Positions 9,601 to 63,581 of a DNA stretch of 64,000 nucleotides are shown in pieces; position 1 is the stretch's first letter, and each line of letters opens with the position of its first letter. Origin of the DNA: an uncultured Hormoscilla sp. (GTDB taxonomy: Bacteria > Cyanobacteriota > Cyanobacteriia > Cyanobacteriales > Desertifilaceae); NCBI GenBank assembly GCA_963921275.4, contig OZ001293.3, positions 768,001 through 832,000 of the forward strand, given 5' to 3'. The position numbers were made by a program, and so were the translations under genes. The notes below the pieces were generated by a model. It was not told the DNA's origin and did not search any database. It saw nothing but the letters and a program-made list of their open reading frames with translations.

Positions 9601-9733
9601 TACAGTAAAAAATGCCGATATAATCATCATGATGGATAAGGGTTCTCTCGCAGAAATGGGTACTCATGATGAACTGATGGCGTCTAAAGGGCGTTACTAT
9701 TGCCTCTTTCAACAACAAGAGTCGCAACTGTAA
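6638..9733 (+). CDS. Type I secretion ABC transporter (HlyB family) with cNMP-binding and C39-like domains
   Basis: 1031 aa; GQSGSGKST Walker A, LSGGQRQR signature, LILDEAT Walker B, transmembrane region. Confidence 0.95.
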   Translation: MTQAVSQSQIEGFIREVSPFSKISLSALQQVMGKFKLLRYRIGQPILVREKLPAFVSIVYQGQVRQLGYDQRMQMPASLKLAGPGEIMGWAGLVRDIGCETAIASTEVVCITISSEDFLDMMRRSPAFAEALQQSCSLSELFELLSLELQRRADGTVNLKELSSQVWENNPTVVNLGPPKVQTKDLLSTLDPERIWLVSSGSIGNFTTGSRLPLETLSPENIETLAIAGYSRSKGSRLLGLRLPAELPRTGSPPVAAETPTQTNGTLVLAQKASAISTTQEAGTAEISSLEEIPYGPDRPPELEQDPLAPAPKFPFVRGSGPINAPLACFHMLSKHTGAKFRRDILEKILKDQLNRTGQISMQACGAIAEMMGMRAQLVEVPASSVNRLKAPALIQWQDSFAILYQITEKNMVIAVPQRGLIKKRAGDFAEIWGDKGQVLLIQPPPGEQREKFGFRWFIPAVQKYRGILTQVFIASFFVQLFSLANPLITQVIIDKVLVQRSPDTLDVLGALLLGVAIFEGLLTWLRTYLFVDTTNRIDLGLGAEVISHLLRLPLNYFDRRRVGELAGRINELENIRKFLTGTALTVVLDAVFSVVYIAVMFYYSWLLSIWALAVVPMLGLLTLLVSPIVRRQLRHKAERYADVQSYLVEVLGGIQTVKAQNIELKSRWQWQERYAKYISAGFKSVLTFSTAGALSGFLNKVSGLAILWVGAGLVLSTASSDNPFTLGKLIAFRIIAGYVTSPLLRLIQLWQNFQETALSIERLSDILDAAPEADEINRQNIPMPDVQGGVTYEEVSFRFNTSGPLQLTNVNLDFPVGSFVGIVGQSGSGKSTLMKLLQRLYEPTSGRIKIDGYDISKVELYSLRRQIGVVLQDTLLFNGTVQDNISLTKPEATTDEIIETAKIAVAHDFIMELPQGYNTVVGERGSSLSGGQRQRIAIARTVLQKPKLLILDEATGALDYDSERQVCNNLASAFTGETVFFITHRLSTVKNADIIIMMDKGSLAEMGTHDELMASKGRYYCLFQQQESQL

Positions 9734-9822
9734 AGTGGAAATATCAAAGAGAAAATGGAGCAATTGTTAATGGTTATTGACCGTTAGCAATTCACCATTT
9801 CCCACGAACAACTGAGGGACAA

Positions 9823-13144: not shown

Positions 13145-13224
13145 ATTAAGAAACCTTGTATCCCCTACTTACTAGGTTATATTGCGATTGCGACTTGGAG
13201 TCCTGATTGTCTCGGTCTAAATTT

Positions 13225-14241
13225 ACGTGAGTTCGACGGACTGGACAAAAAAAAAAGGCGGAGACTGGGTTTGAACCATTCCACCCCAGTCTGAACCCAC
13301 CATGAGTCAAATTGTATCGCGCCTGGATGTCACCCGCATCTTCTGTGAACTAGACGACTTCTGCCAAATGTTCGATTTTTCCGGAACGGTGCGCCACTGG
13401 GAAGAACAACCGCAACTGCCCTCCATGCCTGGGGAACGATGCTGTCGTTCGCGCATGAGCCTCTCAGAAATTATGACGATTGCCATCGCTTTTCATGGCT
13501 CGGGCTTCCGTACGTTCAAAGAGTTTTACACCCTGTGTGTTCTCCCCCATTGGCGCGGAGCCTTTCCCAACTTGGTCAGCTATAATCGCTTTGTGGAATT
13601 GATGCCGTGGTGTCTAATGCTATGAAGTTGTTTTCTTCATACTCGAAAAGGAGAAGTTACAGGCATTTCCTTTGTTGATTCTACACCCATAGAAGTTTGT
13701 CACCCTCGTCGTGCTCATAACCATAAGGTGTTCAAAGGGCTAGTCCACTGGGGGAAAAGCTCAACTGGCTGGCATTTCGGATTTAAATTGCATTTGATTA
13801 TCAACGAGCGCGGAGAGTTACTAGCCTTCAAGCTCACGCCAGCCAACACTGACGACCGTAAACCTGTACCAGAGATGGCTCAAGACTTGTTTGGAAAACT
13901 GTTTGGAGACCGGGGATATGTCTTGAGAGACCTATTCGAGAAATTATACGAACAAGGTCTCAAATTGCTAAATCGAAGCGAAATATGAAAAATCGCTTGA
14001 TGAAAACGAGCGATAAAATCCGGCTCCGGAAGCGGGCCGTCATTGAATCGGTCAACGACCAACTCAAGAACATCTGTCAAATCGAGCATTCTCGCCACCG
14101 AAGTGTCTTCAACTTCTTGGTCAACCTGCTGGCTGGCTTGGTGGCCTACACCGACGCCGATAAAAAACCTCGCCTCGTTCTGGAGGTCAAAGGCTTACCA
14201 GCACTACCTCCTGCCATTTTCTAGTTTCGTCGAACTCACGT
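13225..14241 (+). mobile_element. IS982-family element with broken transposase
   Basis: TIR ACGTGAGTTCGACG; GFKLHL, GDRGY and [10 protein letters not shown] motifs; in-frame stop at 13623 and a frameshift; near-TSD TAAATTT/TACATTT. Confidence 0.9.
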
Positions 14242-15282
14242 TACATTTTTGCCTACATGAGAGATAACGACTCCCACCGTCCCAGGGGGGATTTCCGTTA
14301 ACGGCACTTCTTCAACTTGAACGAACCAAGGGTTAAGACTCCAAGAACCTTCTTGCAGAAATTCTTCCTGCAAACCTCGGTAGCCCCCTGCATCAATGAA
14401 CTTTTGCCCATTTTGGAATGTGTAGTGTCCTTGGATGAACGGACCAGCTATCTCATTTTCTGGAAGAGGCATGCCGTAGAGAGTAGTTACGATCCCGATC
14501 ATATTTCTCCCTACCGTATATACCTTCATATCTTCAGGCTTTATCCCATATTCGGTAGCACGGGCCGCTGTTACAATCGTAAACAATGCCGTATTAATTT
14601 GGTATTCACCAGCCCTCAAAATAGCCAATTGTTCCCCACGCTGTCCTCCATTGGTAATGAATGCTCGTGCGTCTTGGAAGTTATTGCATTCAACAACCTT
14701 ACCAAGAATTCGTTCATCTGGTAGCGGGGCACCATCGTGGGCGATTACTAGAGCAATTTCTCTTGGCGGAACCTTGACCGTGGGTACTCTGCGAACCTTG
14801 AACAATGCAGTATTTATTTGGTAAGTTCCAGCTTTAAGGATAGCTAGTTGCTGACCTCTCTGCCCCCCATTCTTAATAAATGCTTCTGCATCCTGGAAGT
14901 CATTGCACTCAACAACTTTACCAAAGTTTTGACCCGGAGGTAGGGCAGCACCATTTTTCGCCTCGACTATGCCAACTTCACTTGCTTCAATCTGGATGAC
15001 GTTATTTTCTGTTATACTCTCAGGCGGAACCTTGACCGTGGGTACTCTGCGAACCTCGAACAATGCAGTATTTATTTGGTAAGTTCCAGCTTTAAGGATA
15101 GCTAGTTGCTGACCTCTCTGCCCCCCATTCTTAATAAATGCTTCTGCATCCTGGAAGTCATTGCACTCAACAACTTTACCAAAGTTTTGACCCGGAGGTA
15201 GGGCAGCACCATCTTTCGCCTCGACTATGCCAACTTCACTTGCTTCAATCCGGATGACGTTATTTTCTGTTATACTCTCAGG
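14236..15282 (-). pseudogene. C-terminal module of the conflict effector: flotillin/SPFH-associated beta repeats, interrupted by IS982
   Basis: Repeats VECNDFQDAEAFIKNGGQRGQQ..GTYQINTALF; frame continues past the IS to a stop at 13146; no own start codon. Confidence 0.7.
14765..15282. repeat. Near-identical in-frame 258-bp tandem duplication
   Basis: Units start at 14765 and 15023 (GGCGGAACCTTGACCG). Confidence 0.9.
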
Positions 15283-19524: not shown

Positions 19525-21488
19525 TTTGCTAATTTTCCTTCCCAACTAGTGCGTGTCATCAATTAAGCCATATTACAGCTGCCGCGAGGTAGATGGCACC
19601 CAAGAAATTGCGAGCCGTTTTATCGTAGCGTGTCGCCAGAGCCCTGTATTGCTTGAGTTTTTGGAATAGATTTTCAATTAGATGCCGCCACTTGTACATT
19701 TCTTCATCGTATTCTCTGTGTTCTGTGCGGTTACTTTTTGGAGGAATGACAGCCATCCAATCCGCCTCTTTCAGGCGCTCGAGCACACGTTGTTCCGCAT
19801 CATAGGCTTTATCTGCAAGCAGCGCGCCAATCTCACCGATTTTATCCAATAGCACGTCAGCGCCTTTCCCGTCGTGGGCTTGGCCAGGGGTAAGATGAAA
19901 TCCTGTGGGATTGCCTTGGGCAATCGCAAGTGGCATGAATCTTTGTCGATAGTCCCCCTTTACTACGGCCTATGGCTTGGGTTTCGCACGTATCTGAGGG
20001 TGTTTTTTTTTGCACCCGCACGCTCGTTGATGGGCACGCAGGATGGTGGCATCAATCGCGGCGTATTCGTTATCGGCGTCTGAGGCCAAGACATCGAATA
20101 CCTGCTTCCAAACTCCCTTTTCAGACCAACGGGTATGGCGGGTATGAACAACCCGAAAATCCCCAAAACACTCCGGTAAATCCCGCCAGGGAATGCCAGC
20201 ACGATATCGATATAACACGGCAGAACACGAATAATCTATTGTTCTTGGCTGTAGCGCCTGGGTCACCCTCTTTACCAGGTAAAAGGTGTTCGATCCGTTC
20301 CCACTGGTCGTCTCGCAAGCCATAGCGTCTCATATCATGCCCTCTTGATTGTTATTGCTGGATAAGGACTCCATACCGTATCCATCTACTTCTGTCAAGC
20401 AATTTGATTGATGACACACCCTAGAACCACAGTAGTAACAAATTCTTTGATAAACAAGTTCTGGAACGCCATTTTGATACTCTCCTAGCAAAGTATCGAC
20501 CAACAAACTTTCAGGTACGACTTCTGCTGCAACTGCCATTCTCAACCATTGAGAAATATGCTTTCGTGAAAATCTGGTTGTGGGAGACAAGTGCAGAGGA
20601 ACTCTGGGGTATTCCGACTGTTCGACTTGCGAAGCCAAAGGCATTCCAGATTTACATACTTTACCCTTATTATCAACTAAAAACATCACTAAGTAAGTAT
20701 CGCTTAAGTTTACGCTCTCTACAATAGGTTGCCAAAAATGTTCGATTACCTCGGGAATAAATCCTATACAAGTACGGTGAACTTCAGTAAAGATAAAAAT
20801 CAAATGCTGATTTGTCAAGCATTCAATAACTCTAGGGATAACTTGGTCTGGGGAAAAATCATTGTGGGAACCAGTCAAGTCCCTAGCAACCGCATTCCAT
20901 AGTTCAGAAATGTCAACCGGCCATTTTAATCTTGATTTGCCGACCATTCCGCAACTCTGGTAATCGAGAGAATCGAGTAACTAAAATTTCTTGTCCAAAC
21001 TTTTCTTCGCCATGAATTAAAAATGCGGCTGTTCTCTGGAGCTATTTTTGTAATCTTAGAGCGTTTGTCACCTCCTCTTGCTGTTCGTCAAAATCGATTT
21101 CAAGAATTGAATTAAAAAGTCGCCTTTCATCATATGAATATATTGGTGATTGACATTTTTGAGGCTGGTGCTGAAGCGCTTTAATTTTAGCATGCAGATC
21201 ATCCAAGCTCTTTCGACGATCGTCACCTTCAGGACAAGCTGTTGCCAAAGCCTTCACAAAAATAGGAAATATCCAGCCATATTTTTCGTGTTTATTTTCT
21301 ATAAAACTTGGTAAGTTTAATTCAAATAAACTTTCACAATCTGATCCTTGTTTGAGTTTGAAATTTACAAAATAGAGAGCTTCATGTCCTCGACAAAATG
21401 AACGGAGCCTCTGATAACTTTCAAATTGATCGCATTTCAAAATTACCTGTCTGCATAATGCATTCAGTTCATGTGGTAGTCCTTCCAC
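19509..21488 (-). pseudogene. EAD-like N-terminal domain fused to inactive STAND (iSTAND) NTPase, interrupted by IS5
   Basis: N-terminus resembles that of the 24615 ORF (CDQFE..LR.F.RGH); IDFDEQ, AAFLIHG and MFLVD motifs; stop at 21042; IS removal restores YYCGSSWEGKLAKWLIQ*. Confidence 0.7.
19546..20424 (-). mobile_element. IS5-family (IS427-like) element, frameshifted
   Basis: CTAG target at both ends, inverted GTGTCATCAA ends; [20 protein letters not shown] and ATRYDK motifs. Confidence 0.88.
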
Positions 21489-21490: not shown

Positions 21491-23440
21491 TTAAGATCCT
21501 GAAAGATTATACTGCTCCAGCAATTGCTGGGAAACCTCCAAAGCATCCTGGTAATCTCTAACTAAATTTCGAAGTTCTTGCTCGGTCCCCACGCTGAGAC
21601 AATCCTGCAAATCAGGGGGGAATTCTTCCATCTCAAAAGCTTCGTTCGTCCTTTGCGGTCCCAACTTGGCATCTACTTCAACTTGAGTCTTACCAATAAT
21701 TTCTTTTATTTCTGGTAATAAGAACCCCCGTTGCTTGCGAGCTAATACCCGAACCTGAGTCAAAGTATAACGCCAGTCAATTGCCAGCTTGCGACGCTCT
21801 TGCTCGTTAGCAAGTTCGGCATCCAGGATTTGTTCTTTAACAGCTTCCAAGAGTTCCCACCAGGGCTCATCGCGAGCAATTTCCGGTCCCCGTCGCTTTA
21901 ATGCTAATACTTGAATGATAGCATAAGAAAAATCCGCAAGCGAACTCCCACTAATATCAGTTAGCTGTCCGTTTGCGTCTATTTTCAGTGAAGTCGGCAA
22001 AATTTCATCCCTGTGGGAGCCAACTACAACCCGGTAGCCCGCTTTCAAATCTTGGAGGTTGAGATCCATCGTGGAGGAGAAAATCTCATCTTGAGAGCCT
22101 TCACGCAGTAGAAAACTCACCAATTGCCCGACAATTTTACTCACTCTCAGAGCCACAGCCCAATCAGGTCGAAGTAGCGATACTTGAGCGACTAAACCAG
22201 TTTGTTCGAGTTGAGTCATTGGATGGGGTCGAGCCGGGAATCGCTTCCCGACCCTCCCTTGAGGAACCGGACTTGCGATTTTCACCGCATCCGGCTACTG
22301 GGTACTAGGCCCTTTTCATAGGTAGACTTAATAGGAATTACTTCCGTTAGCCCTTGCCGCCTGTCTTTTCTTCCCTTTCCTGGTTTAGCGAGTGGTTGTT
22401 CTGATAACCGTTAGTATCACCATTTTCAAGTCAGTTTTACCAGTTATCCATACCTTATCCTCCACTTGCGTTTCGGATTAGTTCCGTGGCTTTTTAGGAT
22501 TACTCATTCCAGCAGCTTCCTAGTATCACCGACCCACGTCAGCGCTGGCTACCCAGCATCATCTACATTACTGTAGATGTTATCCCAGGAATTACCCCGG
22601 GCATTCGCTTCTTGGGTCATCCCTCCCCCCGTGGCTTGCGCTTAACATCTAACTTGTCCTGATGGACAGCACACGAGAGGTTACTTCGTTCCCTAACAAC
22701 ATTTCGCGATACCTTTAGGTCCACACTATACCCCGGGAGCTATTTGAGTACTATATTAGCCAGAGTCTAAAACTAATACTAGCTACCATTTCCTTTTTAG
22801 GCCAGCGCATATAGCCTTATTTCGCTGGTTCCTTATAACGAGGCTTGCACATGTTTGCCTGCTCTAACCTTGGATATCTTTCCTAGCGGCGTCACCGGCT
22901 TAGGCTGCCAGTTATCCTACATTTGAGTCCTCGCTTAGCACCACGATGATGTCGCTTCGTAGCACCGAGGACCGGTGTCACCCCCGTACCTGGGGGGAGG
23001 GGAATTTAACCCCATGCGGTCAGAGTTCCCGGCTAATGAAACCGGGCTAGCGTTCCGTGTTTGACCACGTTAGGCTAGAACGAATCGCACAAATTCTGTA
23101 AAGGTTTATCTTGCCATACTATATATTTCAAGTTGACACGCAACCAGTCAGTAGAGCGGGCAGGCAACTAGTCAGTTAAATTGATACTGAGACCCAAGCG
23201 ACAAGCCTTATTTTTTTGCACGGAGGAGATCTTGTGGAGGCTTTGGGTCGAGTAATTTGGCTGAAAAGAGCTTTCGACTGAAGAACTAAAAGTGATAAAT
23301 CCAGGTTCAGTCAGCAAACCAGCTCTGTAGAATGCTTGGGCATCGTGCAGCCTAACTAGAAAGTAGCTGTTGTTTAAATATAGGTTGCACGGGGGGTTAG
23401 GTTGCTCTGGATAGTAAATAGAACTGACACTACTTAGCAT
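21491..23440 (-). pseudogene. Hypothetical protein in the conflict operon, split by a sense-oriented group II intron, with a premature stop
   Basis: Exons join in frame (KPLQNL-MTQLEQ); in-frame TAG at 23168. Confidence 0.7.
22221..23090 (-). mobile_element. ORF-less group II intron (lineage B, copy 1)
   Basis: GTGCG 5' end at 23090; intact DV AGTAGCCGGATGCGGTGAAAATCGCAAGTCCGGTTC; near-identical to 56934-57804 and 57805-58675. Confidence 0.92.
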
Positions 23441-28172: not shown

Positions 28173-29911
28173 CGGGTAGTCTTTAAGTTGCAAAAGCGAA
28201 TTTACAGAGCGGCAATGGAAGGCGTAATAAGCGAACGGTTCGCAGACTCCAAAGATTACTGGTAAAATCCCGGGCAGCCAAAAGTCTAGCGGTACGACAG
28301 GTTACACAAGACAACCAGGGAAGGAAAACTGCCGGTGTGGATGGTGTTAAAGCACTGACCCCAAAGCAGCGCTTAGAACTGGTAGGACAGATTGAAATCT
28401 CAAACAAGGCCAAGCCTACACGTCGTGTATGGATACCCAAGCCAGGGAGAGAGGAAAAACGTCCTTTAGGAATACCAACGATGTACGACCGTGCGACACA
28501 AGGACTCCTCAAGACTGCGCTAGAACCCGAATGGGAAGCGTACATGGAAGGGAACTCCTACGGGTTCAGACCGGGAAGGGGATGCCACGATGCAATCGAG
28601 GCAATATACAGTAGCATCAAACAAAAACCCAAGTGGGTACTGGATGCAGACATTGCAAAATGCTTCGATAAGATAAACCACAAGGCGCTACTAGAAAAAC
28701 TGAATACAATATCACCAATCCGTAAGCAAATACGGGCATGGTTAAAAGCCGGGGTGATGGACAAAGGGGAATGGCATGCAACTGAAGCGGGAACGCCCCA
28801 AGGGGGTGTCATATCACCGCTACTAGCCAACATAGCCTTACATGGGTTAGAGGAGGCAGTAATGAAGCTCGCCAAGCCAACAAAGAACGAAAGAAAAAAG
28901 CTGACAGTAGTCAGATATGCAGATGACTTTGTAGTCATGCACGAGAACAGAGTGATAGTGGAAAAAGCGCAGATAGTGGTCGCAGAGTGGCTAAAAGGAA
29001 TCGGGTTAGAACTGAAAGCCGAAAAAACAAAAATAGCTCATACGCTAAAGGGGGAAAACCCGGGGTTTGACTTTCTGGGTTTCAACATCAGGCAATATGA
29101 GGTGAGTAAATACAGGACCGGCAAGTCAACACACGGAACACCCCTAGGATTCAAAACCCTAATAAAACCCAGTAATAAGTCCATAGGGAAGCATAAAGAA
29201 CGGTTATCAGAAATGGTGGCCAGCCATAAAGCAGCACCACAAACAGCCTTGATAAGTGGGGTAAACCCGATAATACGGGGATGGTCAAACTACTACAGGG
29301 CGGTGGTGAGTAAGGAAACTTACAGCTACATGGACCACTACCTATGGACCATTCTCTGGCAGTGGGCAAAAAGGAGACATCCCAATAAATCCAGTCATTG
29401 GATAGCTCGTAAGTACTGGTCCCTAAGTGAGGACGGTAAATGGCGATTCCGATGCAAGATAGGAAAAGATGAGATAACGCTGCGCAAACACTCCGAAACT
29501 GAGATAATCAGGCACGTAAAAGTGAAAGGTACAGCCAGCCCATATGACGGGAACCTTACATATTGGAGCGCAAGACTAGGTAAAAGCCCCGAGTTGAGTA
29601 AGAGGGTAGCAACGCTACTCAAGAGACAAAAGGGGAAATGCCAACACTGTGGACTAACGTTTATGAACTGTGACAAATGGGAAGTTGACCATATCAAGCC
29701 CCTCTCATTAGTCTCATTAGGGGGTAAGGACCGGTACGACAACCTACAGTTACTACACAAGCATTGCCACGATATAAAGACTGCCAACGATGGTAGCAAA
29801 CGTAGCCGTACCTATGACAAGGGTGGCGTTGCTGAGGAGCCGGATGATGCGAAAGTATCAAGTCCGGTTCTGAAGACTAGCAGGAGTGGTGACACTCTTG
29901 CTTAGTTTAAT
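28173..29911 (+). mobile_element. 5'-truncated RT-encoding group II intron (chloroplast-like class)
   Basis: DV GAGCCGGATGATGCGAAAGTATCAAGTCCGGTTC; end GCTTAGTTTAAT; 5' domains missing relative to the 55942 copy. Confidence 0.88.
28337..29905 (+). CDS. ltrA: Group II intron reverse transcriptase/maturase with HNH endonuclease (N-terminus frameshifted)
   Basis: RPLGIP, GTPQGG, YADD, IRGWSNYY and HNH (EVDHI..LHKHCH) motifs. Confidence 0.9.
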   Translation: MDGVKALTPKQRLELVGQIEISNKAKPTRRVWIPKPGREEKRPLGIPTMYDRATQGLLKTALEPEWEAYMEGNSYGFRPGRGCHDAIEAIYSSIKQKPKWVLDADIAKCFDKINHKALLEKLNTISPIRKQIRAWLKAGVMDKGEWHATEAGTPQGGVISPLLANIALHGLEEAVMKLAKPTKNERKKLTVVRYADDFVVMHENRVIVEKAQIVVAEWLKGIGLELKAEKTKIAHTLKGENPGFDFLGFNIRQYEVSKYRTGKSTHGTPLGFKTLIKPSNKSIGKHKERLSEMVASHKAAPQTALISGVNPIIRGWSNYYRAVVSKETYSYMDHYLWTILWQWAKRRHPNKSSHWIARKYWSLSEDGKWRFRCKIGKDEITLRKHSETEIIRHVKVKGTASPYDGNLTYWSARLGKSPELSKRVATLLKRQKGKCQHCGLTFMNCDKWEVDHIKPLSLVSLGGKDRYDNLQLLHKHCHDIKTANDGSKRSRTYDKGGVAEEPDDAKVSSPVLKTSRSGDTLA

Positions 29912-33363: not shown

Positions 33364-34274
33364 TGAAAGTCTGGTTTGGTTTCATTTGCTAGACAACTCT
33401 GGTTATCATGGGGGTTAAATTCCCTCTCCCCAGGTGTGGGGGGTCGAGAATACTACCGGTCCTTAGTGCTGCGGAGTCACATCGCCGTGGTGCTCCGCTA
33501 GGACTTAAATGTAGGGTAGCTGGCAGCCTAAGCTGGCAACACCGCGCTTGTTAGATGTTCATGGTTAGAACAAGCGAACCTGTGTAAGCCTCGTCACCTA
33601 TAACCAGCGGAATAAGGCTGATACGCTGGCCCAAAAGGGAAATGGTAGTTAGTGTTGGTAATCTGTACTTACTAGCATCGCACTCGAAGAACTCCCGGGG
33701 TATAGCAGGAACCTAAAAGCATCGAGAAATGATACCAGGGAACGAAGTAACCTCTTGTGTGCAGTTCGGCTCAACGGGGCCGAACCAGTTAGATATACGT
33801 CCGCGTAGCGTGCGCGGAGCGCATAGCGCAAGCCACGAGGGGAAGGATGTCCTAAGAAGCAAATGCCCGGGGTAATGCCCGTGGATAAGCTGACGTCGGA
33901 CGGATATGGTAAGAAGCCTTTGGTGAAAGTAGCCCTAATATGTCGCAAAACTTAGGAGAAATCCAAAAGTATGAATATGGACTAGAGTCTCAGCCGGGTA
34001 AAGTTCAGAGCCCCGATAAATCAGGAATGGGGAAATGTTAGTAAAGAGCGGTTAGACCGGTTTGCTGAACTACCCTCCGCGAACCTTCCGGAGCTGAAAT
34101 CATTAACGGTCCAATAGGATTGACCATAAGGGGTAAAATTACAGAGGGTAAGGGGAAACGGGGTGACCTAATTATTGATGATGATATGCCTAAGGACAAG
34201 CCCCAGCGGTGAAAGTCGCAAGTCCGGTTTCGCTCTTGGAGGGTTGGGAAGTGATTCCCAGCTCGACCCCGACC
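33364..34274 (+). mobile_element. ORF-less group II intron (lineage D), 5' end lost and DV damaged
   Basis: Colinear with 15604-16530; same 3' end CCCAGCTCGACCCCGACC. Confidence 0.82.
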
Positions 34275-34573
34275 TTGACATATTGGCAAGACGCTAAGTA
34301 GTCAAACTAGGAACTACTTAGGTCCAGGGCCCAGACGAGTACCGGTCTATCCTGTGTGATGGCCAAGCCCAAGCGGCGATAAGAAGCTGCGCATCGCTTA
34401 GCGTGCGCGTAGCGCATAGCTACCTGACTTGCATGAGTAGTTGCTCATACCACAAGTCAATCTTGGTCTGTTTTGTCTAGCTCGCGCTCATGAGCAGCGT
34501 AGTAGTTAGGGCCACGGCGTTGGCGACATAAATGAATCGAGAAAAAGCTATTGGTGTAAGGAGATTAACGTTG

Positions 34574-35677: not shown

Positions 35678-35838
35678 GCAGTGATATCCGATTTTTCCGG
35701 AACGGTGGCATCACTGTAGGGTTGAGGCGGGTAATTGTCTCGATATGAAGGAAGTTGTTGCGTGCATTTCGTATTCGCGCAACAACTTCCTATCGATCGG
35801 ATATAGTTGCTCCATTACAAATAATTTACAAAAGTATT

Positions 35839-39014: not shown

Positions 39015-39120
39015 TTTCAGGGGCGATCGGGCGGCGAGTGGTACTCTATTTTTGCGCTTGTCCCTGATTATGCTATTATAGGGGCGATCGCCTCTATGTT
39101 CGGAGAAAGGAAGGTAAATT

Positions 39121-39710
39121 ATGACGACAGCAACAAAATACGCTTGTGGACTGTAGAGGAATATCATCGGATGATCTCCAGTGGTATTCTTACCCGTGAC
39201 TCCTATGTAGAATTGTTAGAAGGTCGGATTGTAGAAATGAGCCGGAAAGGTCTACTCCATGCAGGTACTACCCAACGCGCTTCCGATTATATCAAAGCTC
39301 GATGACACGATCAAGCTCATGTCAGGATGCAATTGCCCGTTACTTTACCAACTTCCGATTTTTCCGGAACGGTACCGGAACCCGATGTGGCCGTAGTTAG
39401 GATCGATCGGGGTGCCTATGGAGATCATCATCCTACGCCAGACGAAATATTTCTGCTCGTAGAAGTCGCCGATACAACCCTAAGAATCGATCGCCTGGAG
39501 AAAGCGCCCCTCTACGCCAGGGCAAATATTCCAGAATACTGGATTTTAGATGTGAGCGATCGCCAAGCCTATATTTTCCGCGATCGAACTTCCGTTGGCT
39601 ATAGATCGTCTTTTGTTTTGCCAGATAATGCCGCTATTGCACTAAGAGCATTTCCAACAATAGAAATATCCCTATCCGATTTTTCCGGAACGGTGCTTTT
39701 TCTGCCGTAG
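39121..39710 (+). pseudogene. Uma2-family endonuclease
   Basis: WTVEEYHRM, EPDVAV, LLVEVAD and IPEYWI motifs; frameshift, stop at 39303, two 15-bp inserts. Confidence 0.85.
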
Positions 39711-41487: not shown

Positions 41488-41682
41488 AACGCTTTTATAT
41501 CTATAATAGAGAGTTGATGTTAGTTCTGAGATGATTGTATCATATTAACCCGAAATCTCCATGGCAAAATCAAGAAACCTGGTTTTTTGCTCATACCGGG
41601 TTAGAGGGCTACGGCGGTCAGAAACCACTGCAGCGAACGGGCCGTCTCAGTTTCTCCGGTTAGAGTGAGGGGAAAAACACAG

Positions 41683-42858
41683 ATGATATTCCGACGATAC
41701 TTCCTGTTTGCCCAGCTAAGAAAACACTGGTGGGTGACTCTGCTATTGTGGATAGCGATGTTCAACCCAGCGCTAGCAGCTGCTTTAGAACTGCGAGTCG
41801 CAATAGAAGAAGAAGTCAAGCAAGTGCAAGTGGGCAGTTCCTCGGCGGCCACAGTCAAGAATAGTGCTGGGGAAACCCTCGGAGAACTGAGGGCGATGTC
41901 GGGGTTTGTCGCTCAACATCAGGATAGCACTGTTGCCCTGTCCAAATGGCAAGCTGGTCAAATTTGGATTGAACCCGCAGATAATGGTTTAGTCTGGATC
42001 GGCGATCGCTGGTATCGAGGGCGCGTCCTCCTAGTCCCCAGCGAGTCAGGACTCACTGCTGTCAACTACGTAGACATCGAACATTATCTGTACAGCGTCT
42101 TAGGAGGGGAAATGCCTCCCAGCTGGCCCCTGGAAGCCCTGAAAGCCCAAGCAGTGGCCGCCCGTTCCTACGCCTTGTATCAGCGGGGGAAAACTGCCAA
42201 TAAAATCTACGATCTCGGCGATACCACCGCTTGGCAAGTTTACCAAGGGGTCGAAGATGAATATATCAGCACCCAACAAGCCGTAAATGCCACAGCTGAT
42301 CAAGTTCTCATCCACGATGGTAAGATTATCGAAGCCGTTTTCCACTCCTCCTCAGGAGGGCACACGGAAAACGTGGAAGATATCTGGACAGCGTCCCTAC
42401 CCTATTTGCGAGCAGTCCCCGACTTCGATCAGAATGCACCCGTGTTCGAGTGGAAAAAAACCTTTTCGGGCGATATTCTCAGCAGTTTAATTAGCAGTGT
42501 AGGTAATATTTTATCCCTAACTCCAGAGCGTACCACACCTCACGGACGGATTACCACCATGAAAGTTATCGGTGATAAAGGGGAGAAAGTCGTCACTGGC
42601 AAGGAACTGCGTAAACTGCTAAGCCTGAAAAGCACTTTATTTACTATCAGTCCCCTTGGGGAAAGTGCCGATTTTTCCGGAACGGTGGATGAAAATTCAC
42701 CTCCAAGCAGTTTCCAAGTAGTCGGTCGCGGTTTCGGACATGGACTGGGCCTGTCTCAGTATGGCGCTAATGCCTTAGCTCGACGGGGATACAACTACCA
42801 GCAGATTTTACTGCATTACTATACCAAAACATCTCTTGCTCGCATTGAAGTCGAGTAA
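41683..42858 (+). CDS. SpoIID/LytB domain protein
   Basis: ALKAQAVAARSY, QVY.G and GFGHGLGLSQYGA motifs; carries an in-frame 15-bp insert. Confidence 0.92.
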   Translation: MIFRRYFLFAQLRKHWWVTLLLWIAMFNPALAAALELRVAIEEEVKQVQVGSSSAATVKNSAGETLGELRAMSGFVAQHQDSTVALSKWQAGQIWIEPADNGLVWIGDRWYRGRVLLVPSESGLTAVNYVDIEHYLYSVLGGEMPPSWPLEALKAQAVAARSYALYQRGKTANKIYDLGDTTAWQVYQGVEDEYISTQQAVNATADQVLIHDGKIIEAVFHSSSGGHTENVEDIWTASLPYLRAVPDFDQNAPVFEWKKTFSGDILSSLISSVGNILSLTPERTTPHGRITTMKVIGDKGEKVVTGKELRKLLSLKSTLFTISPLGESADFSGTVDENSPPSSFQVVGRGFGHGLGLSQYGANALARRGYNYQQILLHYYTKTSLARIEVE

Positions 42859-42893
42859 TTGAGCAATTGAGCAATTGAGCAATTGAGCAATTG
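42857..42893. repeat. 8-bp short tandem repeat AATTGAGC x4
   Basis: Seen directly. Confidence 0.85.
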
Positions 42894-44066: not shown

Positions 44067-44456
44067 TCAATCCAACCACTCACTGGGATCGGGTTGTTTG
44101 CGTTCCATTGCTTTGATATAATCTTTCAGCGTCCGCTTATAGTCGGCTGGCTTGGGCCGCTCAACTCGTACTCGGCCCGAATGGCCAGCCCGATTTTTCG
44201 CGCAGCGTTCGCGGGTCTTGGGAGGTTGGGGGGCCCGGGTTGGAGGAACGGTCAGGATCGACCGCAAGCGATCGCGAGCCTCATTGATTTGTCTCATTTT
44301 CTCATGAGCCTTCTGTTGCAGCCGAGGAAACTGGACAAAACGATCGGGGTGCCAGACGATCGCCAAATCCTTATAACCTTGGTGAATTTCCTCTAGGGAA
44401 GCCCCCGGTTCTAGTTCCAGGATTCTATAGTAGTGAGCTGCATCTGTCATATCCAA
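44067..44456 (-). CDS. DnaJ-domain protein
   Basis: YYRILEL..WHPD..INEA J-domain. Confidence 0.88.
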   Translation of the reverse strand: MDMTDAAHYYRILELEPGASLEEIHQGYKDLAIVWHPDRFVQFPRLQQKAHEKMRQINEARDRLRSILTVPPTRAPQPPKTRERCAKNRAGHSGRVRVERPKPADYKRTLKDYIKAMERKQPDPSEWLD

Positions 44457-46880: not shown

Positions 46881-47897
46881 ACGTGAGTTCGACGAAACTA
46901 GAAAATGGCAGGAGGTAGTGCTGGTAAGCCTTTGACCTCCAGAACGAGGCGAGGTTTTTTATCGGCGTCGGTGTAGGCCACCAAGCCGGCCAGCAGGTTG
47001 ACCAAGAAGTTGAAGACACTCCGGTGGCGAGAATGCTCGATTTGACAGATGTTCTTGAGTTGGTCGTTGACCGATTCAATGACGGCCCGCTTCCGGAGCT
47101 GGATTTTATCGCTCGTTTTCATCAAGCGATTTTTCATATTTCGCTTCGATTTAGCAATTTGAGACCTTGTTCGTATAATTTCTCGAATAGATATTGAGAG
47201 ACATATCCCCGGTCTCCAAACAGTTTTCCAAACAAGTCTTGAGCCATCTCTGGTACAGGTTTACGGTCGTCAGTGTTGGCTGGCGTGAGCTTGAAGGCTA
47301 GTAACTCTCCGCGCTCGTTGATAATCAAATGCAATTTAAATCCGAAATGCCAGCCAGTTGAGCTTTTCCCCCAGTGGACTAGCCCTTTGAACACCTTATG
47401 GTTATGAGCACGACGAGGGTGACAAACTTCTATGGGTGTAGAATCAACAAAGGAAATGCCTGTAACTTCTCCTTTTCGAGTATGAAGAAAACAACTTCAT
47501 AGCATTAGACACCACGGCATCAATTCCACAAAGCGATTATAGCTGACCAAGTTGGGAAAGGCTCCGCGCCAATGGGGGAGAACACACAGGGTGTAAAACT
47601 CTTTGAACGTACGGAAGCCCGAGCCATGAAAAGCGATGGCAATCGTCATAATTTCTGAGAGGCTCATGCGCGAACGACAGCATCGTTCCCCAGGCATGGA
47701 GGGCAGTTGCGGTTGTTCTTCCCAGTGGCGCACCGTTCCGGAAAAATCGAACATTTGGCAGAAGTCGTCTAGTTCACAGAAGATGCGGGTGACATCCAGG
47801 CGCGATACAATTTGACTCATGGTGGGTTCAGACTGGGGTGGAATGGTTCAAACCCAGTCTCCGCCTTTTTTTTTTGTCCAGTCCGTCGAACTCACGT
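46881..47897 (-). mobile_element. IS982-family element, copy 2
   Basis: Near-identical to 13225-14241; 6-bp TSD AAGTCC. Confidence 0.92.
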
Positions 47898-48070
47898 AAG
47901 TCCAATTGCAGAAATCGCATTTTGCCCAGGCGATCGCCTCCCTCTGGTTATGAGGCTCGCCGGTAGTTACCATAGGGTTCCCATTGCTCACCTGACAAAC
48001 AGTAGACTCGGAAGGTGGCTATTTTACAGGAACCGAAAGCTGACAAAGCTTAAACGCTGCTAGAGGTGAC

Positions 48071-53516: not shown

Positions 53517-53599
53517 TGCTAATTGCTAATTGCTAATTGTTAATTGCTAATTGCTAACGGGGCACGGCCAAGTCAAATAATGCTCCTAGGCTCTTTCGC

Positions 53600-54557: not shown

Positions 54558-55124
54558 CTAAGTTTTTCCCGAGTTTTCCCGAACGGTACAATCACAAATC
54601 AGGAGATCCATTAACATCTTAGCCGGATTGACTTTTTCGCTACGATTTTCTGCCGTTTCTCTGGTACTAGCCATCAATGCCTCTCGGGTAGTGCGACTAG
54701 CGATCCCGAGAGGCATCGAACGCAGGCGATCGCGAATATTGCCCAGTATGAATTGATTATTGACAGGTAAACGGGGTGTTGGCAGATCTAGATTAGGCCA
54801 CCAAGGCAAATTATTACAGGGACAGCACTGGGGTGGCAGGCCCGCAGTCGGGAGAGGGAGGGGGAGCTCACAACGACAACACATCACCAGTTCCCACTCC
54901 GGCGTCAACAGTTGAGTAATAGTTTCGTCAGTCCCCTCCAGGTAGCAGTCTCTGGAGTCAGGTGAGATAATTTTCTGCCAGCATGCTTCAAACTCCTGAC
55001 TATAACTATCGCCTTTTACTACTGGTTGAGGCAGCAAAGCTTCGTTCCCATTGAGAATCATCACTTTTTTGCCCAATTGTAGCCAATAGGCAAGATATTG
55101 TTTTACTTGCGTTTGAGATGCCAT
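54558..55124 (-). CDS. Conserved cyanobacterial hypothetical protein (Cys-rich)
   Basis: MASQTQVKQYLAYWLQLGK; CxxC motifs. Confidence 0.8.
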   Translation of the reverse strand: MASQTQVKQYLAYWLQLGKKVMILNGNEALLPQPVVKGDSYSQEFEACWQKIISPDSRDCYLEGTDETITQLLTPEWELVMCCRCELPLPLPTAGLPPQCCPCNNLPWWPNLDLPTPRLPVNNQFILGNIRDRLRSMPLGIASRTTREALMASTRETAENRSEKVNPAKMLMDLLICDCTVRENSGKT

Positions 55125-55205: not shown

Positions 55206-55796
55206 TTATCGCTTGATCGCGTAGCGTGCGCGCTGCGCATTCGCTCCTGACAAGGGAGTGCCTAGCTCACTGAGGTTAAGGATATGACCAGCAGTAACCA
55301 GGTAAACTGGATGGGCTACCGCAGCGATGTGGCGCACTAGCGTGCTGAGGCGATCGCGAAACAGCCGACCAATAGGATAAGCTGGAACCAGGCCCCACCC
55401 TGTCTCTTCAGCCACCAAAATCACATCAGCAGCAGTCCGCTGCAAACAGGAAAGCATTGCCTGCTGGGTCTGATTCCAGCTTACATCATCCTGGTGCAAT
55501 AAATTTGCCAGCCAAGTTCCCACTGAATCGATCAATAGACAGCTATTCGCCCCATATAGCTCAATTGTGGCCGCCAACTCGATCGGCACTTCCAGAGTTT
55601 TCCAGCTGGGGGGACGCCGCCGCTGGTGCAGTACAATCCGATTATGCCACTCCCGATCCGTCGGGTCAGTAGCAGCGGTTGCCACATAGACCACCTGTTT
55701 GCCCGTACCCGTGGCCAGGGTCTCAGCCCATTCGCTCTTTCCAGACCGGGCCGGTCCTGTCACCAGGATGAATTGCCTTGCCTGAGAAGATGTCAT
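55206..55796 (-). CDS. cobU: Adenosylcobinamide kinase / phosphate guanylyltransferase
   Basis: GPARSGKS, YVATA and EETGWGLVP..GRLFRD motifs. Confidence 0.93.
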   Translation of the reverse strand: MTSSQARQFILVTGPARSGKSEWAETLATGTGKQVVYVATAATDPTDREWHNRIVLHQRRRPPSWKTLEVPIELAATIELYGANSCLLIDSVGTWLANLLHQDDVSWNQTQQAMLSCLQRTAADVILVAEETGWGLVPAYPIGRLFRDRLSTLVRHIAAVAHPVYLVTAGHILNLSELGTPLSGANAQRARYAIKR

Positions 55797-56933: not shown

Positions 56934-57804
56934 GGATGGGGTCGAGCCGGGAATCGCTTCCCGACCCTCCCTTGAGGAACCGGACTTGCGATTTTCACCG
57001 CATCCGGCTACTGGGTACTAGGCCCTTTTCATAGGTAGACTTAATAGGAATTACTTCCGTTAGCCCTTGCCGCCTGTCTTTTCTTCCCTTTCCTGGTTTA
57101 GCGAGTGGTTGTTCTGATAACCGTTAGTATCACCATTTTCAAGTCAGTTTTACCAGTTATCCATACCTTATCCTCCACTTGCGTTTCGGATTAGTTCCGT
57201 GGCTTTTTAGGATTACTCATTCCAGCAGCTTCCTAGTATCACCGACCCACGTCAGCGCTGGCTACCCAGCATCATCTACATTACTGTAGATGTTATCCCA
57301 GGAATTACCCCGGGCATTCGCTTCTTGGGCCATCCCTCCCCCCGTGGCTTGCGCTTAACATCTAACTTGTCCTGATGGACAGCACACGAGAGGTTACTTC
57401 GTTCCCTAACAACATTTCGCGATACCTTTAGGTCCACACTATACCCCGGGAGCTATTTGAGTACTATATTAGCCAGAGTCTAAAACTAATACTAGCTACC
57501 ATTTCCTTTTTAGGCCAGCGCATATAGCCTTATTTCGCTGGTTCCTTATAACGAGGCTTGCACATGTTTGCCTGCTCTAACCTTGGATATCTTTCCTAGC
57601 GGCGTCACCGGCTTAGGCTGCCAGTTATCCTACATTTGAGTCCTCGCTTAGCACCACGATGATGTCGCTTCGTAGCACCGAGGACCGGTGTCACCCCCGT
57701 ACCTGGGGGGAGGGGAATTTAACCCCCATGCGGTCAGAGTTCCTGGCTAATGAAACCGGGCTAGCGTTCCGTGTTTGACCACGTTAGGCTAGAACGAATC
57801 GCAC
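56934..57804 (-). mobile_element. ORF-less group II intron (lineage B, copy 2)
   Basis: 871 bp, near-identical to 22221-23090. Confidence 0.92.
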
Positions 57805-58675
57805 GGATGGGGTCGAGCCGGGAATCGCTTCCCGACCCTCCCTTGAGGAACCGGACTTGCGATTTTCACCGCATCCGGCTACTGGGTACTAGGCCCTTTT
57901 CATAGGTAGACTTAATAGGAATTACTTCCGTTAGCCCTTGCCGCCTGTCTTTTCTTCCCTTTCCTGGTTTAGCGAGTGGTTGTTCTGATAACCGTTAGTA
58001 TCACCATTTTCAAGTCAGTTTTACCAGTTATCCATACCTTATCCTCCACTTGCGTTTCGGATTAGTTCCGTGGCTTTTTAGGATTACTCATTCCAGCAGC
58101 TTCCTAGTATCACCGACCCACGTCAGCGCTGGCTACCCAGCATCATCTACATTACTGTAGATGTTATCCCAGGAATTACCCCGGGCATTCGCTTCTTGGG
58201 CCATCCCTCCCCCCGTGGCTTGCGCTTAACATCTAACTTGTCCTGATGGACAGCACACGAGAGGTTACTTCGTTCCCTAACAACATTTCGCGATACCTTT
58301 AGGTCCACACTATACCCCGGGAGCTATTTGAGTACTATATTAGCCAGAGTCTAAAACTAATACTAGCTACCATTTCCTTTTTAGGCCAGCGCATATAGCC
58401 TTATTTCGCTGGTTCCTTATAACGAGGCTTGCACATGTTTGCCTGCTCTAACCTTGGATATCTTTCCTAGCGGCGTCACCGGCTTAGGCTGCCAGTTATC
58501 CTACATTTGAGTCCTCGCTTAGCACCACGATGATGTCGCTTCGTAGCACCGAGGACCGGTGTCACCCCCGTACCTGGGGGGAGGGGAATTTAACCCCCAT
58601 GCGGTCAGAGTTCCCGGCTAATGAAACCGGGCTAGCGTTCCGTGTTTGACCACGTTAGGCTAGAACGAATCGCAC
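57805..58675 (-). mobile_element. ORF-less group II intron (lineage B, copy 3), tandem with copy 2
   Basis: 871 bp, abuts copy 2 with no spacer. Confidence 0.92.
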
Positions 58676-59876
58676 GGACTCCTCAAGATTACGCTCGAAC
58701 CTGAATGGGAGGCGTATATGAAAGGGAACTCCTACGGGTTCAGACCGGGTAGGGGATGTCACGATGCAATCCAGGCAATATTTGATAGCATCAGATATAA
58801 ACCCAAGTGGGTAATGGATGCTGATATTGCAAAATGCTTCGATAAGATTGACCACAAAGCGCTAATGAAAAAATTAAATACAACGTCACCAATCCGTAAG
58901 CAAATACGGGCATGGTTAAAAGCCGGGGTGATGGACAAAGGAGAATGGCATGCAACCGAAGCGGGAACTCCCCAAGGGGGAGTCATATCACCACTACTAG
59001 CCAACATAGCCTTACATGGGTTAGAGGAGGCAGTAAAGGAACTCGCCAGGACACAAAGGGAAAAGCAAAAGCTGACGGTAATCAGGTATGTTGATGACTT
59101 TGTGATAATACATGAAGATAGGGAGATAATAGACAGAGCGCAGACAGTGGTGGCAAAGTGGCTAAAGGGAATGGGGCTAGAGTTGAAAGCCGAAAAGACA
59201 AAAATAACTCATACGCTAAAGGGAGAAAAACCGGGATTTGATTTCCTGGGGTTCAACATAAGGCAATATGAGACGGGTAAATACAGAGCCAACAAATCAC
59301 CCCAAGGAATACCCCTAGGGTTCAAAACCCTAATCAAACCCAGTAATAAGTCCGTAGGTAAGCATAAAGAACGGTTATCAGAAATGGTCGCCAGCCATAA
59401 AGCAACACCACAGACAGCCTTGATAAGTAGGCTAAACCCGATAATACGGGGATGGTCAAACTATTACAGAACTGTGGTGAGTAAGGAAACTTACAGCGAC
59501 ATGGATAACTACCTATGGAACATCCTATGGCAATGGGCCAAAAGGAGACATCCCAAAAAGTCAAGTCACTGGATAGCCCGTAAGTACTGGTCTAAAGACC
59601 AGGGTGGTAAATGGCGATTCCGATGCAAGACAGGAGAGGGAGAGATAACGCTGTGCAAACATACTGAGATAATCAGACAAGTAAAAGTAAAAGGCACAGC
59701 AAGCCCATACGATGGGAACCTTACATATTGGAGTACGAGATTAGGCAAAAGCCCCGAACTGAGCAAGAGAGTGGCAACAGTATTGAAGAGGCAAAAGGGA
59801 AAATGTCAATACTGCGGATTAACGTTTATGGACAGTGACAAATGAGAAGTTGACCAGATCAAGCTTCTTTCATTAG

Positions 59877-60088: not shown

Positions 60089-60288
60089 TTTCATTAGGGG
60101 GTAAGGACCGGTATGACAACCTACAGTTGCTGCACAAGCATTGCCACGATATAAAGACTGCCAGCGATGGCAGCAAAAACAGCCGTACCCATGACAAAGG
60201 TGGCGTTACTGAGGAGCCGGATGACGCGAAAGTGTCAAGTCCGGTTCTGAAGACGAGTCGAGGTGGTGACACCCTGGCTTAGTTTAAT

Positions 60289-62214: not shown

Positions 62215-63581
62215 GGGTACATCTCAGTTAGGCGATGAGTAATTATACTTAGTGCTTGTCTCCCTCAAAACGGTACATAATTTAGGCACTGTTGACCACC
62301 CTTGACCCATGAACTCCCAAAAGCAGGCTGAACTCCAGCAACATCTTGACGCGATTGCCGCGATTCTCTACCAGGAAGCCGACCCCACTGAACTCACCAC
62401 CCTTGAAGGCATTGAGAAAAACGTTCGTGCGCTTGCCCAAGAACACGTCTGGCCTCAACTAGGAATTTTTTTATCAACACGGCGACTTCCCGCCGCACCG
62501 GAAAACAGCGTACCCTGACCAGTATCCTGGGCAAACTAACCCTCACCACTGCTCAAGCCCAACAACTGCAAGTTAAACCGGGAACTCGTTGGAGTCCGTA
62601 TGTGGAAAAATGTTGTTGGGTCGTCAGTGCCAATGCCTCTTACCAGAGAGCCGATTTTTCGGGCCGTCCGCGGACCGTACAAGATCTCGCGATGCTGACT
62701 GGGGTGAGCATCTCCACAGTACGCTCCAACGCTTTGTTCAACGAGAGGACTGGTCTGAGGTAGAGATAGCTGAACCGATTCAGGAGCTCAGCTTGGATGG
62801 CGGCATGATTCGCCTTCGTACCGATTTTTCGGGCCGTCCGCGGACCGTGGAGGGTCAACCTGGTGAGTGGCGAGAATACAAAGCCTTAAATGTCCATGAG
62901 CAAGGCAGTGTGGCTTTCTTCAAGGATAATCAAGGGCTGCTTGAGTGGGTGAATGCCCAGCCCCTCGGGGCGCAGTTCACCGGTCTCGGAGATGGTCATG
63001 ATGGGGTGTGGAACATTTTCAGTGGTATCGGGACACCAGAACAACGTATCGAAGTGCTCGATTGGTATCACCTAATGGAAAATGCCAATAAGGTGCAAGG
63101 GACACCGGCTCAATCCGATTTTTCGGGTCGTCCGCGGACCGTGCAGATCCGATTTTTCGGGCCGTCCGCGGACCGTGCACTCCTGTGGCGAGGGGAGACC
63201 CAGAGGGCGATTAGTTATCTGCGCCAACAGCAATGTCGGGGAGCCACAGGGTTGATCAACTACTTGAAGCACCATCAGACGCGCATCATTGACTACCAGG
63301 CTAGCCCTCCTGGCGTCGGGCCGCTGCGCGAACGGGCAGGCAGCTCGGCACTCGATTGGCTCTGGTCGGGTTGAGTCCCTGGTGAAACAAATTGGGTTAA
63401 GGGTGAAATTACCGGGGGCACAATGGCGAGCCGAGAATGTGCCGATTTTTCGGGCCGTCCGCGGACCGTAGGTGTTGAAGCATCGCTGTGCCTACCTGAA
63501 TGGCGCATTAGTTGCCTAATCAGACTCAGTAAATCCACTTTTGCTGAGTAAATATACTCATCGCCTAACTGAGATGCACCC
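62215..63581 (+). mobile_element. ISKra4-like element with degraded transposase
   Basis: TIR GGGT(A/G)CATCTCAGTTAGGCGATGAG; 8-bp TSD GATTGCCT; LGDGHDGVW, LDWYHL and IGSG.VES motifs. Confidence 0.88.

Follow-up and report, generated by a model that had tools for sequence, protein, structure and literature searches.

Short repeats inside genes and insertion sequences

A 64,000-nt stretch of an uncultured Hormoscilla sp. genome (contig OZ001293.3, positions 768,001 to 832,000; hereafter the window) carries two families of very short repeats, the 15-mer TTTTTCCGGAACGGT, designated family A, and the 24-mer TTTTTCGGGCCGTCCGCGGACCGT, designated family B, which are found inside genes, inside insertion sequences (ISs) and, in one case, between genes (Table 1). 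Family A had been described in the original prediction, made without database searches, as a 15-mer repeated at specific sites, and this observation is confirmed, all six of the copies listed there being exact and in place. When up to two mismatches are allowed, the window returns seven matches to family A against 0.19 expected, a number reached in none of the 100 shuffles that served as control.

Two of the exact copies occupy equal positions in two inverted IS982-like elements of 1019 nt each, which are 99% complementary, have 13-bp terminal inverted repeats and contain fragments of an IS982-family (DDE_Tnp_1_3) transposase. Because these two copies of the 15-mer sit in two copies of one IS, the window holds five independent family A sites. 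A single Uma2 gene carries two further copies. This gene is a probable pseudogene, given an in-frame stop codon at which the window reads KAR(stop)HD and the orthologues P0121 and P0122 read KARLQE/KARLHE. The frame of the SpoIID/LytB-domain gene, which carries another copy, is intact. All four genic copies in the window read DFSGTV. Inserts occur in the window at a density of about one per 10 kb.

Read directly, all six frames of family A are free of stop codons. The element contains a perfect palindrome without a loop, TTCCGGAA, and its ends, TTTTTC and ACGGT, are not inverted repeats of each other. The exact copies in the window are preceded by CCGA at four sites and by TCGA in the two IS copies, and are followed by G in five cases and by A in one. 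Inspection of the flanks of these six copies revealed no direct repeat of the flanking bases.

Table 1. Repeats of families A and B, with their host genes. Positions are those of the window, except for the copy in locus L075, one of the Hormoscilla loci found by genome scan.
Feature	Position	Strand	Remarks
Family A	13376-13390	+	Exact; inside IS982-like copy 1 (13223-14241), N-terminal transposase frame, MF-DFSGTV-RHW
Family A	35692-35706	+	Exact; between genes, downstream of an inositol-1-phosphate synthase gene; lies in the loop between the arms of a 7-bp inverted repeat (CAGTGAT...ATCACTG)
Family A	39359-39373	+	Exact; Uma2 gene; TSE-PEPD becomes TS-DFSGTV-PEPD
Family A	39680-39694	+	Exact; same Uma2 gene; SLSE-LFLP becomes SLS-DFSGTV-LFLP
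Family A	42672-42686	+	Exact; SpoIID/LytB-domain gene; SAE-DEN becomes SA-DFSGTV-DEN
Family A	47732-47746	-	Exact; inside inverted IS982-like copy 2 (46881-47899); same insertion as at 13376, no independent event
Possible decayed family A copy, GTTTTCCCGAACGGT	54573-54587	+	Two mismatches; CCGA before, A after; uncertain
Family A, one mismatch, TTTTTCCGGCACGGT	L075, ~295	-	TCGA before, G after; ~300 nt from the exact copy of the same locus
Family B	62655..62678	+	CCGA before, A after; in decayed ISKra4-family transposase gene
Family B	62825..62848	+	Reads RLRT-DFSGRPRTV-EGQPGEW
Family B	63119..63142	+	One mismatch; first of an adjacent pair 34 nt apart
Family B	63153..63176	+	Second of the adjacent pair
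Family B	63446..63469	+	CCGA before, A after
Uma2 host gene (PF05685)	39096..39710	+	Carries two family A copies; in-frame stop 39303-39305
SpoIID/LytB-domain host gene (PF08486)	41665..42858	+	Intact frame, 397 aa
Frameshifted ISKra4-family transposase remnant (NF033572)	62589..63471	+	Host of five family B copies

Empty sites and exact boundaries

Alignment of the host proteins with their orthologues separates filled from empty sites. For SpoIID, the window and P0001 (from Hormoscilla sp. SP5CHS1, 96-97% identity) read GESA-DFSGTV-DENSPPSS, as against SAE-DED or SAE-DEN, with no insert, in P0002, P0003 and P0005 (91-92% identity; one of them labelled Hormoscilla). DFSGTV is absent from all ten of the more distant SpoIID sequences aligned, and P0004 and P0006 have an unrelated, longer stretch at its position. 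For Uma2, the reading is PTSE-PEPD and SLSE-LFLP in P0121 (94%), in P0122 (97%) and in ten other homologues, with no DFSGTV at either site. The peptide is therefore not ancestral. At the SpoIID site and at both Uma2 sites, one Glu has been exchanged for Asp-Phe-Ser-Gly-Thr-Val, which follows from the 15-base insertion falling between the GA and the R of a GAR codon.

Excision of exactly 15 bases (shift 0) yields TSEPEPD, SLSELFLP and ESAEDEN, the sequences of the closest orthologues; the restoration of the motifs SEPEPD, LSELFLP and ESAEDEN on removal had been foreseen. When the excised segment is slid one or two positions either way, the result is Val or Asp, never Glu. Since shift 0 alone restores the Glu of the orthologues, the boundaries of family A are unique. 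By these alignments, the family A inserts are derived and recent, younger than about 3-9% protein divergence, because orthologues at 91-97% protein identity keep the empty site. An adapter or assembly artefact, which had been named as a possible refutation, is excluded: five or more independent assemblies contain family A, among them one with Mb-scale contigs, the deposited proteins P0001 and P0242 include its translation, and it has been duplicated along with an IS.

The target site

Position counts over the 25 independent family A sites, those of the window together with the 20 Hormoscilla loci described below, define the target. Position -5 is T in 14 of the 25 (where the target reads TCCGA), -4 is C in 24 and T in one, and -3 is C in 22 and T in three; -2 is always G and -1 always A. 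On the other side, +1 is a purine throughout, +2 is G or C in 19 and +3 is a purine in 20. The target is best written t-C-Y-G-A/R, with insertion at the slash, between the A and the purine. It holds at 25 of 25 family A and six of six family B sites, with no target duplication at any of them. The rule first proposed, CCGA or TCGA before, a purine after and no target-site duplication, thus holds in the window and is better given in this wider form outside it.

Among the matches listed by the genome scan, the 20 Hormoscilla copies have CCGA (17) or CTGA (3) in front and A (11) or G (9) behind, and YYGA/R accordingly surrounds 20 of 20 Hormoscilla matches versus 3 of 96 control matches, so that the flanks, whose randomness had been raised as a counter-argument, are non-random. 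The variants are few, namely three CTGA and one TCGA among the exact family A copies, with TCGA again at the one-mismatch copy in L075. Because 194 CCGAR, and 43 TCCGAR, remain empty in the window, only a minority of the potential targets is filled.

Copies in other Hormoscilla genomes

An exact-match scan of reference genomes (~600 Gb) listed 115 loci with the 15-mer; about 1100 chance matches are estimated collection-wide, about a tenth being sampled. Among the matches listed, 20 of the 115 loci come from four Hormoscilla assemblies (7, 7, 5 and 1 loci) and were examined as stretches of ~1.2 kb. The other 95 belong to unrelated bacteria and archaea; 94 of these have one match, and one, from a Methanoregula assembly, has two, 269 nt apart. 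This background is about what would be expected for a random 15-mer in ~600 Gb. The nearest proteins to the SpoIID of the window bear a Hormoscilla label, which points to a Hormoscilla-type cyanobacterium as its source. Hormoscilla itself is introduced in its genome paper as a filamentous symbiont of Dysideidae sponges (PMC6520454).

When the 20 Hormoscilla loci were compared by BLAST with the window and with each other, only the element and a few other short repeats were in common, and there was no orthologous overlap that would provide an empty site at the DNA level. As nothing else is common to the loci and the window, the 20 loci count as further independent sites. In 13 of them, a stop-free frame of at least 100 codons extends over the element, in the sense direction in six (four DFSGTV, two IFPER) and antisense in seven (four STVPEKS, two PFRKNR and one YRSGKIG); such an open frame is not a proven gene, and several of the 13 span the full 1.2 kb. 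With the four genic copies of the window, the tally becomes 10 sense and seven antisense, which places 17 of 25 family A sites within open frames of 100 codons or more. Both orientations are used, as are five of the six frames, in addition to the intergenic copy. The generalization that genic copies are sense-oriented and encode DFSGTV is therefore true of the window but fails outside it, where seven of the 13 open-frame loci are antisense and two read IFPER. This variation in orientation and frame argues that the DFSGTV peptide is not what is selected. The one-mismatch copy in L075 shows that family A copies decay, and it provides another case of two close copies.

A second family at the same target

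Family B surfaced in a k-mer survey of the window. Family A, the only element of the original prediction, has a 24-nt sister that shares its target. The window contains five family B copies, four exact and one with a single mismatch, which lie between 62655 and 63469, each on the + strand. A sixth comes from Hormoscilla locus L015, where the family A copy is on the other strand. All six are preceded by CCGA and followed by a purine. Both families start with the same six bases, TTTTTC, and end alike (ACGGT in A, ACCGT in B), and their internal perfect palindromes, GTCCGCGGAC in B and TTCCGGAA in A, have the same half-site. Family B, like family A, has a length divisible by three and is free of stops in six frames, and the frame that gives DFSGTV in A gives DFSGRPRTV in B. 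Because of these lengths and the lack of stops, a genic insertion only adds five (A) or eight (B) residues, and the commonest frame turns Glu into Asp-Phe-Ser-Gly-(Arg-Pro-Arg)-Thr-Val.

The host of the five window copies matches NF033572 at 93.6 bits, which is under the curated cut-off of 205. Homologues of this ISKra4-family transposase were found by an all-against-all profile search and then aligned. P0262, P0264 and P0266 are without the eight residues at RLRT/GQPGEW; P0264 and P0266 are also without eight residues after SYQRAE, reading AE where P0265 has A-DFSGRPRTV; and the 16-residue double insert of the adjacent pair is missing from P0261 and P0263. Two of the family B copies, those at the 62655 and 62825 sites, are common to P0265 and the window. 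By this comparison of IS copies, family B is also an insertion.

A search for further families, using the pattern YYGA-TTTT...CSGT-R, returned only the one-mismatch family A copy of L075 and two probable chance matches. Apart from these, positions 44192-44220 of the window read CCCGA and then TTTTTCGCGCAGCGTTCGCGGGTC, with an A/B-like start at the same target, no CSGT end and a single copy in the window; this is either chance or a third family.

Clustering and strand

Four of the five independent family A sites fall within 6980 nt (p ~0.02 when five sites are resampled from the real CCGA/YYGA positions of the window), and all five family B sites within 791 nt, which none of 200000 resamplings of real CCGA sites matched. 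All nine clustered copies (four A, five B) are on the + strand. Among the matches listed by the scan, neighbouring pairs on one contig, 2.8 and 4 kb apart, also occur, and in one of them, L005/L006, the two copies have the same orientation. The clustering suggests local re-insertion or locally permissive DNA, the latter being considered because pseudogenes and IS remnants are among the hosts.

Interpretation and alternatives

Each element is inserted whole and in a single orientation relative to its target, and nearly all copies are identical. We read families A and B as related families of very small, non-autonomous mobile DNA of Hormoscilla, and assign this reading a probability of roughly 0.7. 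The earlier claim of a site-specific and very short mobile unit that contains a TTCCGGAA palindrome and adds five residues to proteins is supported both by the empty sites in relatives at 91-97% identity and by the flank rule obeyed at 20 of 20 loci. The elements are most likely selfish or neutral passengers and not functional modules.

As for how they move, we suggest tentatively that an enzyme supplied in trans carries out a strand-specific cut-and-join reaction of the HUH (IS200/IS605) type. Such an enzyme would join the element, with its end ACGGT (A) or ACCGT (B), 3' of the fixed target of four or five bases. In their anatomy, the elements come closest to the single-strand HUH/Y1 systems, IS200/IS605 and REP-RAYT. 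Base pairing may serve to read the target, through the stretch that comes just after the T-run of the element. In family A, CGGA (nt 7-10) is complementary to TCCG, a pairing that is also the fold returned by folding; in family B, TCGG (nt 5-8) is complementary to CCGA. The variation seen in the target is confined to C to T at -3/-4 and A or G at +1, and recognition by base pairing is hinted at by the fact that C/T and A/G variants are those that a G or T/U partner would tolerate by wobble. A bolder version, which we regard as doubtful, is that families A and B are guide-bearing micro-transposons, the element itself programming the trans-acting enzyme through pairing over the empty target. The guide would consist of TT-C-GG in B and TT(C)CGGA in A, set against tCCGA/R, and G-T wobble would explain the C/T and A/G tolerance. 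If this were true, 15 nt would make family A the smallest site-specific mobile DNA known, and selection would have made the elements a multiple of three and stop-free in six frames, suiting them to life inside genes.

Several points weigh against the mobile-DNA reading and its proposed mechanism. Since the elements are palindromic, some of their complementarity to the target arises as a by-product, and tolerance of C or T is common in protein recognition. A scan of 63 window open reading frames (ORFs) revealed no gene for an HUH, RAYT or other candidate enzyme, nor is there a Y1_Tnp or OrfB match in the window. Fifteen nucleotides are too short for the two subterminal hairpins of IS200/IS605 ends, and target plus element, folded as a single strand, does no better than shuffles (z -0.4 to -1.4). 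Orientation is opposed within the pairs L062/L063 (2.8 kb apart) and L014/L075 (28 kb apart), which speaks against the mechanism, and it shows no relation to local GC skew across the 20 loci (mean 0.011, 10 of 20 positive, p = 0.51), for which 1.2-kb loci make a weak test. The genome scan only samples genome-wide copy number and host range. The empty sites of family B rest on paralogous or orthologous IS copies at 57-86% identity, with no strict orthologues among them, and in the L015 M48 protease, the A and B inserts fall within a hypervariable linker, all of which is missing from the nearest homologue (76%).

A different route, which we consider unlikely, runs through RNA. A nick after the A of CCGA would expose a 3'-OH as primer for the reverse transcription of a small RNA, 5'-ACCGUUCCGGAAAAA-3', whose end might be UCGG for pairing with the primer, and the resulting cDNA, TTTTT...ACGGT, would be sealed into the gap, much as in target-primed reverse transcription. 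The T5 start of the inserted strand, which gives a retroposon-tail-like A5 end on the complement, would fit this, as would the near-identity of the copies, as if they came from a master transcript. Also in its favor, the C-to-T tolerance of the target is compatible with RNA-DNA pairing, and the window contains five group II intron 3' domains and one reverse transcriptase with an HNH nuclease domain (28337-29902), its other reverse transcriptases being fragments. Yet there are no 5'-truncated copies, nothing in the window has CCGATTTTTCC without the full element, and every copy is exact at both ends. Moreover, group II intron proteins work on their own intron RNA, the group II intron exon junctions examined have no consistent CCGA, and we found no small RNA gene or master locus.

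Movement as double-stranded DNA strikes us as improbable too. Here, a dimeric enzyme, either a recombinase or a restriction-type nuclease-ligase, would read TCCG half-sites, present as an inverted pair in the elements (TCC-GGA in A, TCCG-CGGA in B) and singly in the target (TCCGA), cut bluntly at A/R and join a short duplex; it would be expected to bind TCCGGA or TCCGCGGA duplexes. Perfect, loop-free palindromes with weak folds suit a symmetric protein site better than a hairpin, and T is favored at -5, with TCCGA at 14 of 25 sites. In what PMC4390886 says of the small dispersed repeat (SDR) SDR5, directed cutting of HIP1 is proposed for its precise insertion. Against such an enzyme, the strict orientation despite a symmetric core means that the asymmetric ends must be read as well, and there is no candidate gene among the 63 window ORFs. 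We also know of no enzyme that integrates a 15-bp duplex.

That the 15 and 24 bases are scars of a departed larger transposon with these ends would explain why the sequence and its target are constant and no complete element is seen, but it is very improbable, since no parent element is present in any of 26 contexts. No longer element with these termini was found in the window or the 20 Hormoscilla loci, and the sequence past the 15 nt is unrelated in every copy. The footprints of transposons usually differ in length and retain duplicated target bases, whereas all 26 exact-pattern copies are of equal length, with no duplication. Finally, the absence of any mobility, with DFSGTV as an ancestral or convergently selected peptide or the repeat as a sequencing or assembly artefact such as an adapter, can practically be dismissed: all four genic window copies happen to read DFSGTV, but the peptide is missing from the close orthologues and from all outgroups aligned, other frames, antisense copies and an intergenic copy occur, at least five independent assemblies contain the element, an IS has duplicated with it, and the chance matches in the 95 loci of other organisms have, among the matches listed, random flanks.

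Other features of the window and loci

Some further repeats deserve mention. In Uma2, P0122 and P0123 read ADT-IDRQDACPTG-IDR (alignment columns ~121-130) where the window has ADTTLR-IDR, a net gain of seven residues, which may represent yet another small in-frame insertion family of other Hormoscilla strains; a back-translated guess of the seven-residue insert found no match in the window. A GC-rich repeat, GCGCGCACGCTACGCG, occurs with its variants at 55218-55233, 33802-33817 and 34395-34410, all on the - strand (three matches against 0.02 expected), and at 662-691 of L005. In L005 and at 55.2 kb, it adjoins GCGATC or HIP1-like sequence, which is reminiscent of the reported placing of SDR5 in HIP1. 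Tandem repeats of the AATTGAGC and CAATTAG types are found at 42857-42893, 43027, 53520-53553 and 4937, including directly after the SpoIID stop codon and beside a creatininase-family gene, and a similar heptamer run is present in L031 and L047; these look like cyanobacterial short tandemly repeated repetitive (STRR) sequences. A 258-nt tandem duplication (14765-15280), perfect to 99%, lies inside ORF 14236-15063 (-), which has no Pfam match, and extends beyond it.

Group II intron 3' domains (RF00029/RF04357) are located at 22223-23090 (-), 56936-57804 (-), 57807-58675 (-), 29834-29911 (+) and 60211-60288 (+). Three of the introns are ORF-less, ~869 nt long and start with GTGCGATTCG; two of these are arranged head to tail, 2 nt apart, directly upstream of a truncated intron reverse transcriptase ORF (58718-59842). 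The ORF at 28337-29902 comprises full reverse transcriptase, maturase and HNH regions, and related fragments lie at ~15.6-16.1, 27.0-27.7 and 33.4-34.2 kb. The window also contains a type I secretion cluster (2294-11343), with an RTX-repeat protein (HemolysinCabind), a C39-peptidase ABC transporter that has a cyclic-nucleotide-binding domain and an HlyD-family protein, followed by the dTDP-rhamnose genes rmlC and rmlD. Beside an IS4/IS5-family transposase, neighbouring ORFs at 20333-21488 (-) match iSTAND and bacterial Death-like domain 1 (bDLD1) and are a possible conflict-system remnant.

Significance

Few mobile DNA elements seen so far are as small as families A and B. Since the SDRs of Nostoc were described, it has been asked how sequences of 20-odd bases are able to move, and the present case is cleaner than theirs, with two lengths, one exact five-base target, similar ends and almost all copies identical, and with filled and empty states that differ between strains only 3-9% apart in protein sequence. 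Because the two lengths share target and ends, the copies are identical and the strains are close, the recognition needs of the machinery are narrowed, and comparative gene-content searches and in vitro assays become feasible. The inserts also represent a route to short peptide gains in proteins, from Glu to DFSGTV or DFSGRPRTV without a frameshift, and annotators of Hormoscilla and related symbiont genomes should recognize them.

Comparison with known systems

Our literature search turned up no paper with the 15-mer, its reverse complement or DFSGTV, and a term search of the Hormoscilla genome paper (PMC6520454) returned nothing on such repeats, insertions, transposases or mobile elements in the text so covered. 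Cyanobacterial MITEs (miniature transposable elements with inverted repeats), such as Nezha, MaeMITE and others, are presented in PMC3184786 as non-autonomous, multi-copy and filled or empty between relatives. Families A and B are likewise non-autonomous and multi-copy, with filled and empty sites between relatives. MITEs, however, measure at least ~100 nt and have the terminal inverted repeats of a parent IS and flanking direct repeats, none of which is seen in A or B. Having no terminal inverted repeats and no flanking duplication, A and B were rejected as MITEs.

The Rickettsia palindromic elements (Ogata et al. 2000) are said to be ~100-150 nt long, with long hairpins and no reported pentanucleotide target. 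They are cited for repeats in protein genes in PMC3184786. The effect of A and B on proteins is parallel, at a tenth of the size, with no sequence relationship.

Elements of the IS200/IS605 type insert in oriented fashion, without duplication, on the 3' side of a fixed tetra- or pentanucleotide, and have a conserved 3' tetranucleotide and no terminal inverted repeats; they are hundreds to thousands of bases long, with subterminal hairpins at both ends, and encode the HUH (Y1) transposase TnpA. The insertion of A and B is similarly oriented, 3' of a specific tetra- or pentanucleotide and without target duplication. Unlike IS200/IS605 elements, A and B are too short for subterminal hairpins and fold weakly, and no tnpA was seen in the window.

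Repetitive extragenic palindromes (REPs) and REPINs, as outlined in PMC6006769, are 20-40 nt long, consist of a short head and a palindrome and occur in high copy number, their movement in trans being attributed to a single-copy HUH protein; the same source has HUH-type RAYT (TnpA-REP) proteins as common in Cyanobacteria. REP heads are given as GTAG or CGTC in PMC3733652. In contrast, the heads of A and B, on the opposite strand, are ACCG and ACGG, their folds (z -0.4 to -1.4) are not the real hairpins that REPs form, and 17 of 25 family A sites are inside open frames of 100 codons or more, whereas REPs are extragenic. A and B were rejected as REPs or REPINs on these three grounds.

The closest likeness in behavior is to the SDRs of Nostocales, above all SDR5, and the original prediction's comparison with these is apt. 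SDR1-8 of Nostoc punctiforme and its relatives (Elhai et al. 2008, Genome Res 18:1484) reportedly range from 21 to 27 nt in length, and to our knowledge neither their enzyme nor their mechanism is known. Families A and B resemble them as very short, dispersed, non-tandem and near-identical repeats (six A and five B copies in 64 kb, with at least 20 A elsewhere), in having filled and empty homologous sites (SpoIID and two Uma2 sites for A, ISKra4 homologues for B), and in precise insertion at a fixed point of a short target without duplication, by several related families per genome. Family A, at 15 nt, is below this length range, and family B, at 24 nt, is inside it. SDR5, according to the relevant part of PMC4390886, is inserted precisely between bases 3 and 4 of the HIP1 sequence GCGATCGC, and PMC5861425, in its treatment of SDR-like repeats, has none found outside Nostocaceae. 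The present host, Hormoscilla, is instead a sponge symbiont of the Oscillatoriales type, and the target is tCYGA/R and not HIP1, with two families on one target. Families A and B are a new, smaller and non-Nostocacean variant of the cyanobacterial small dispersed repeats.

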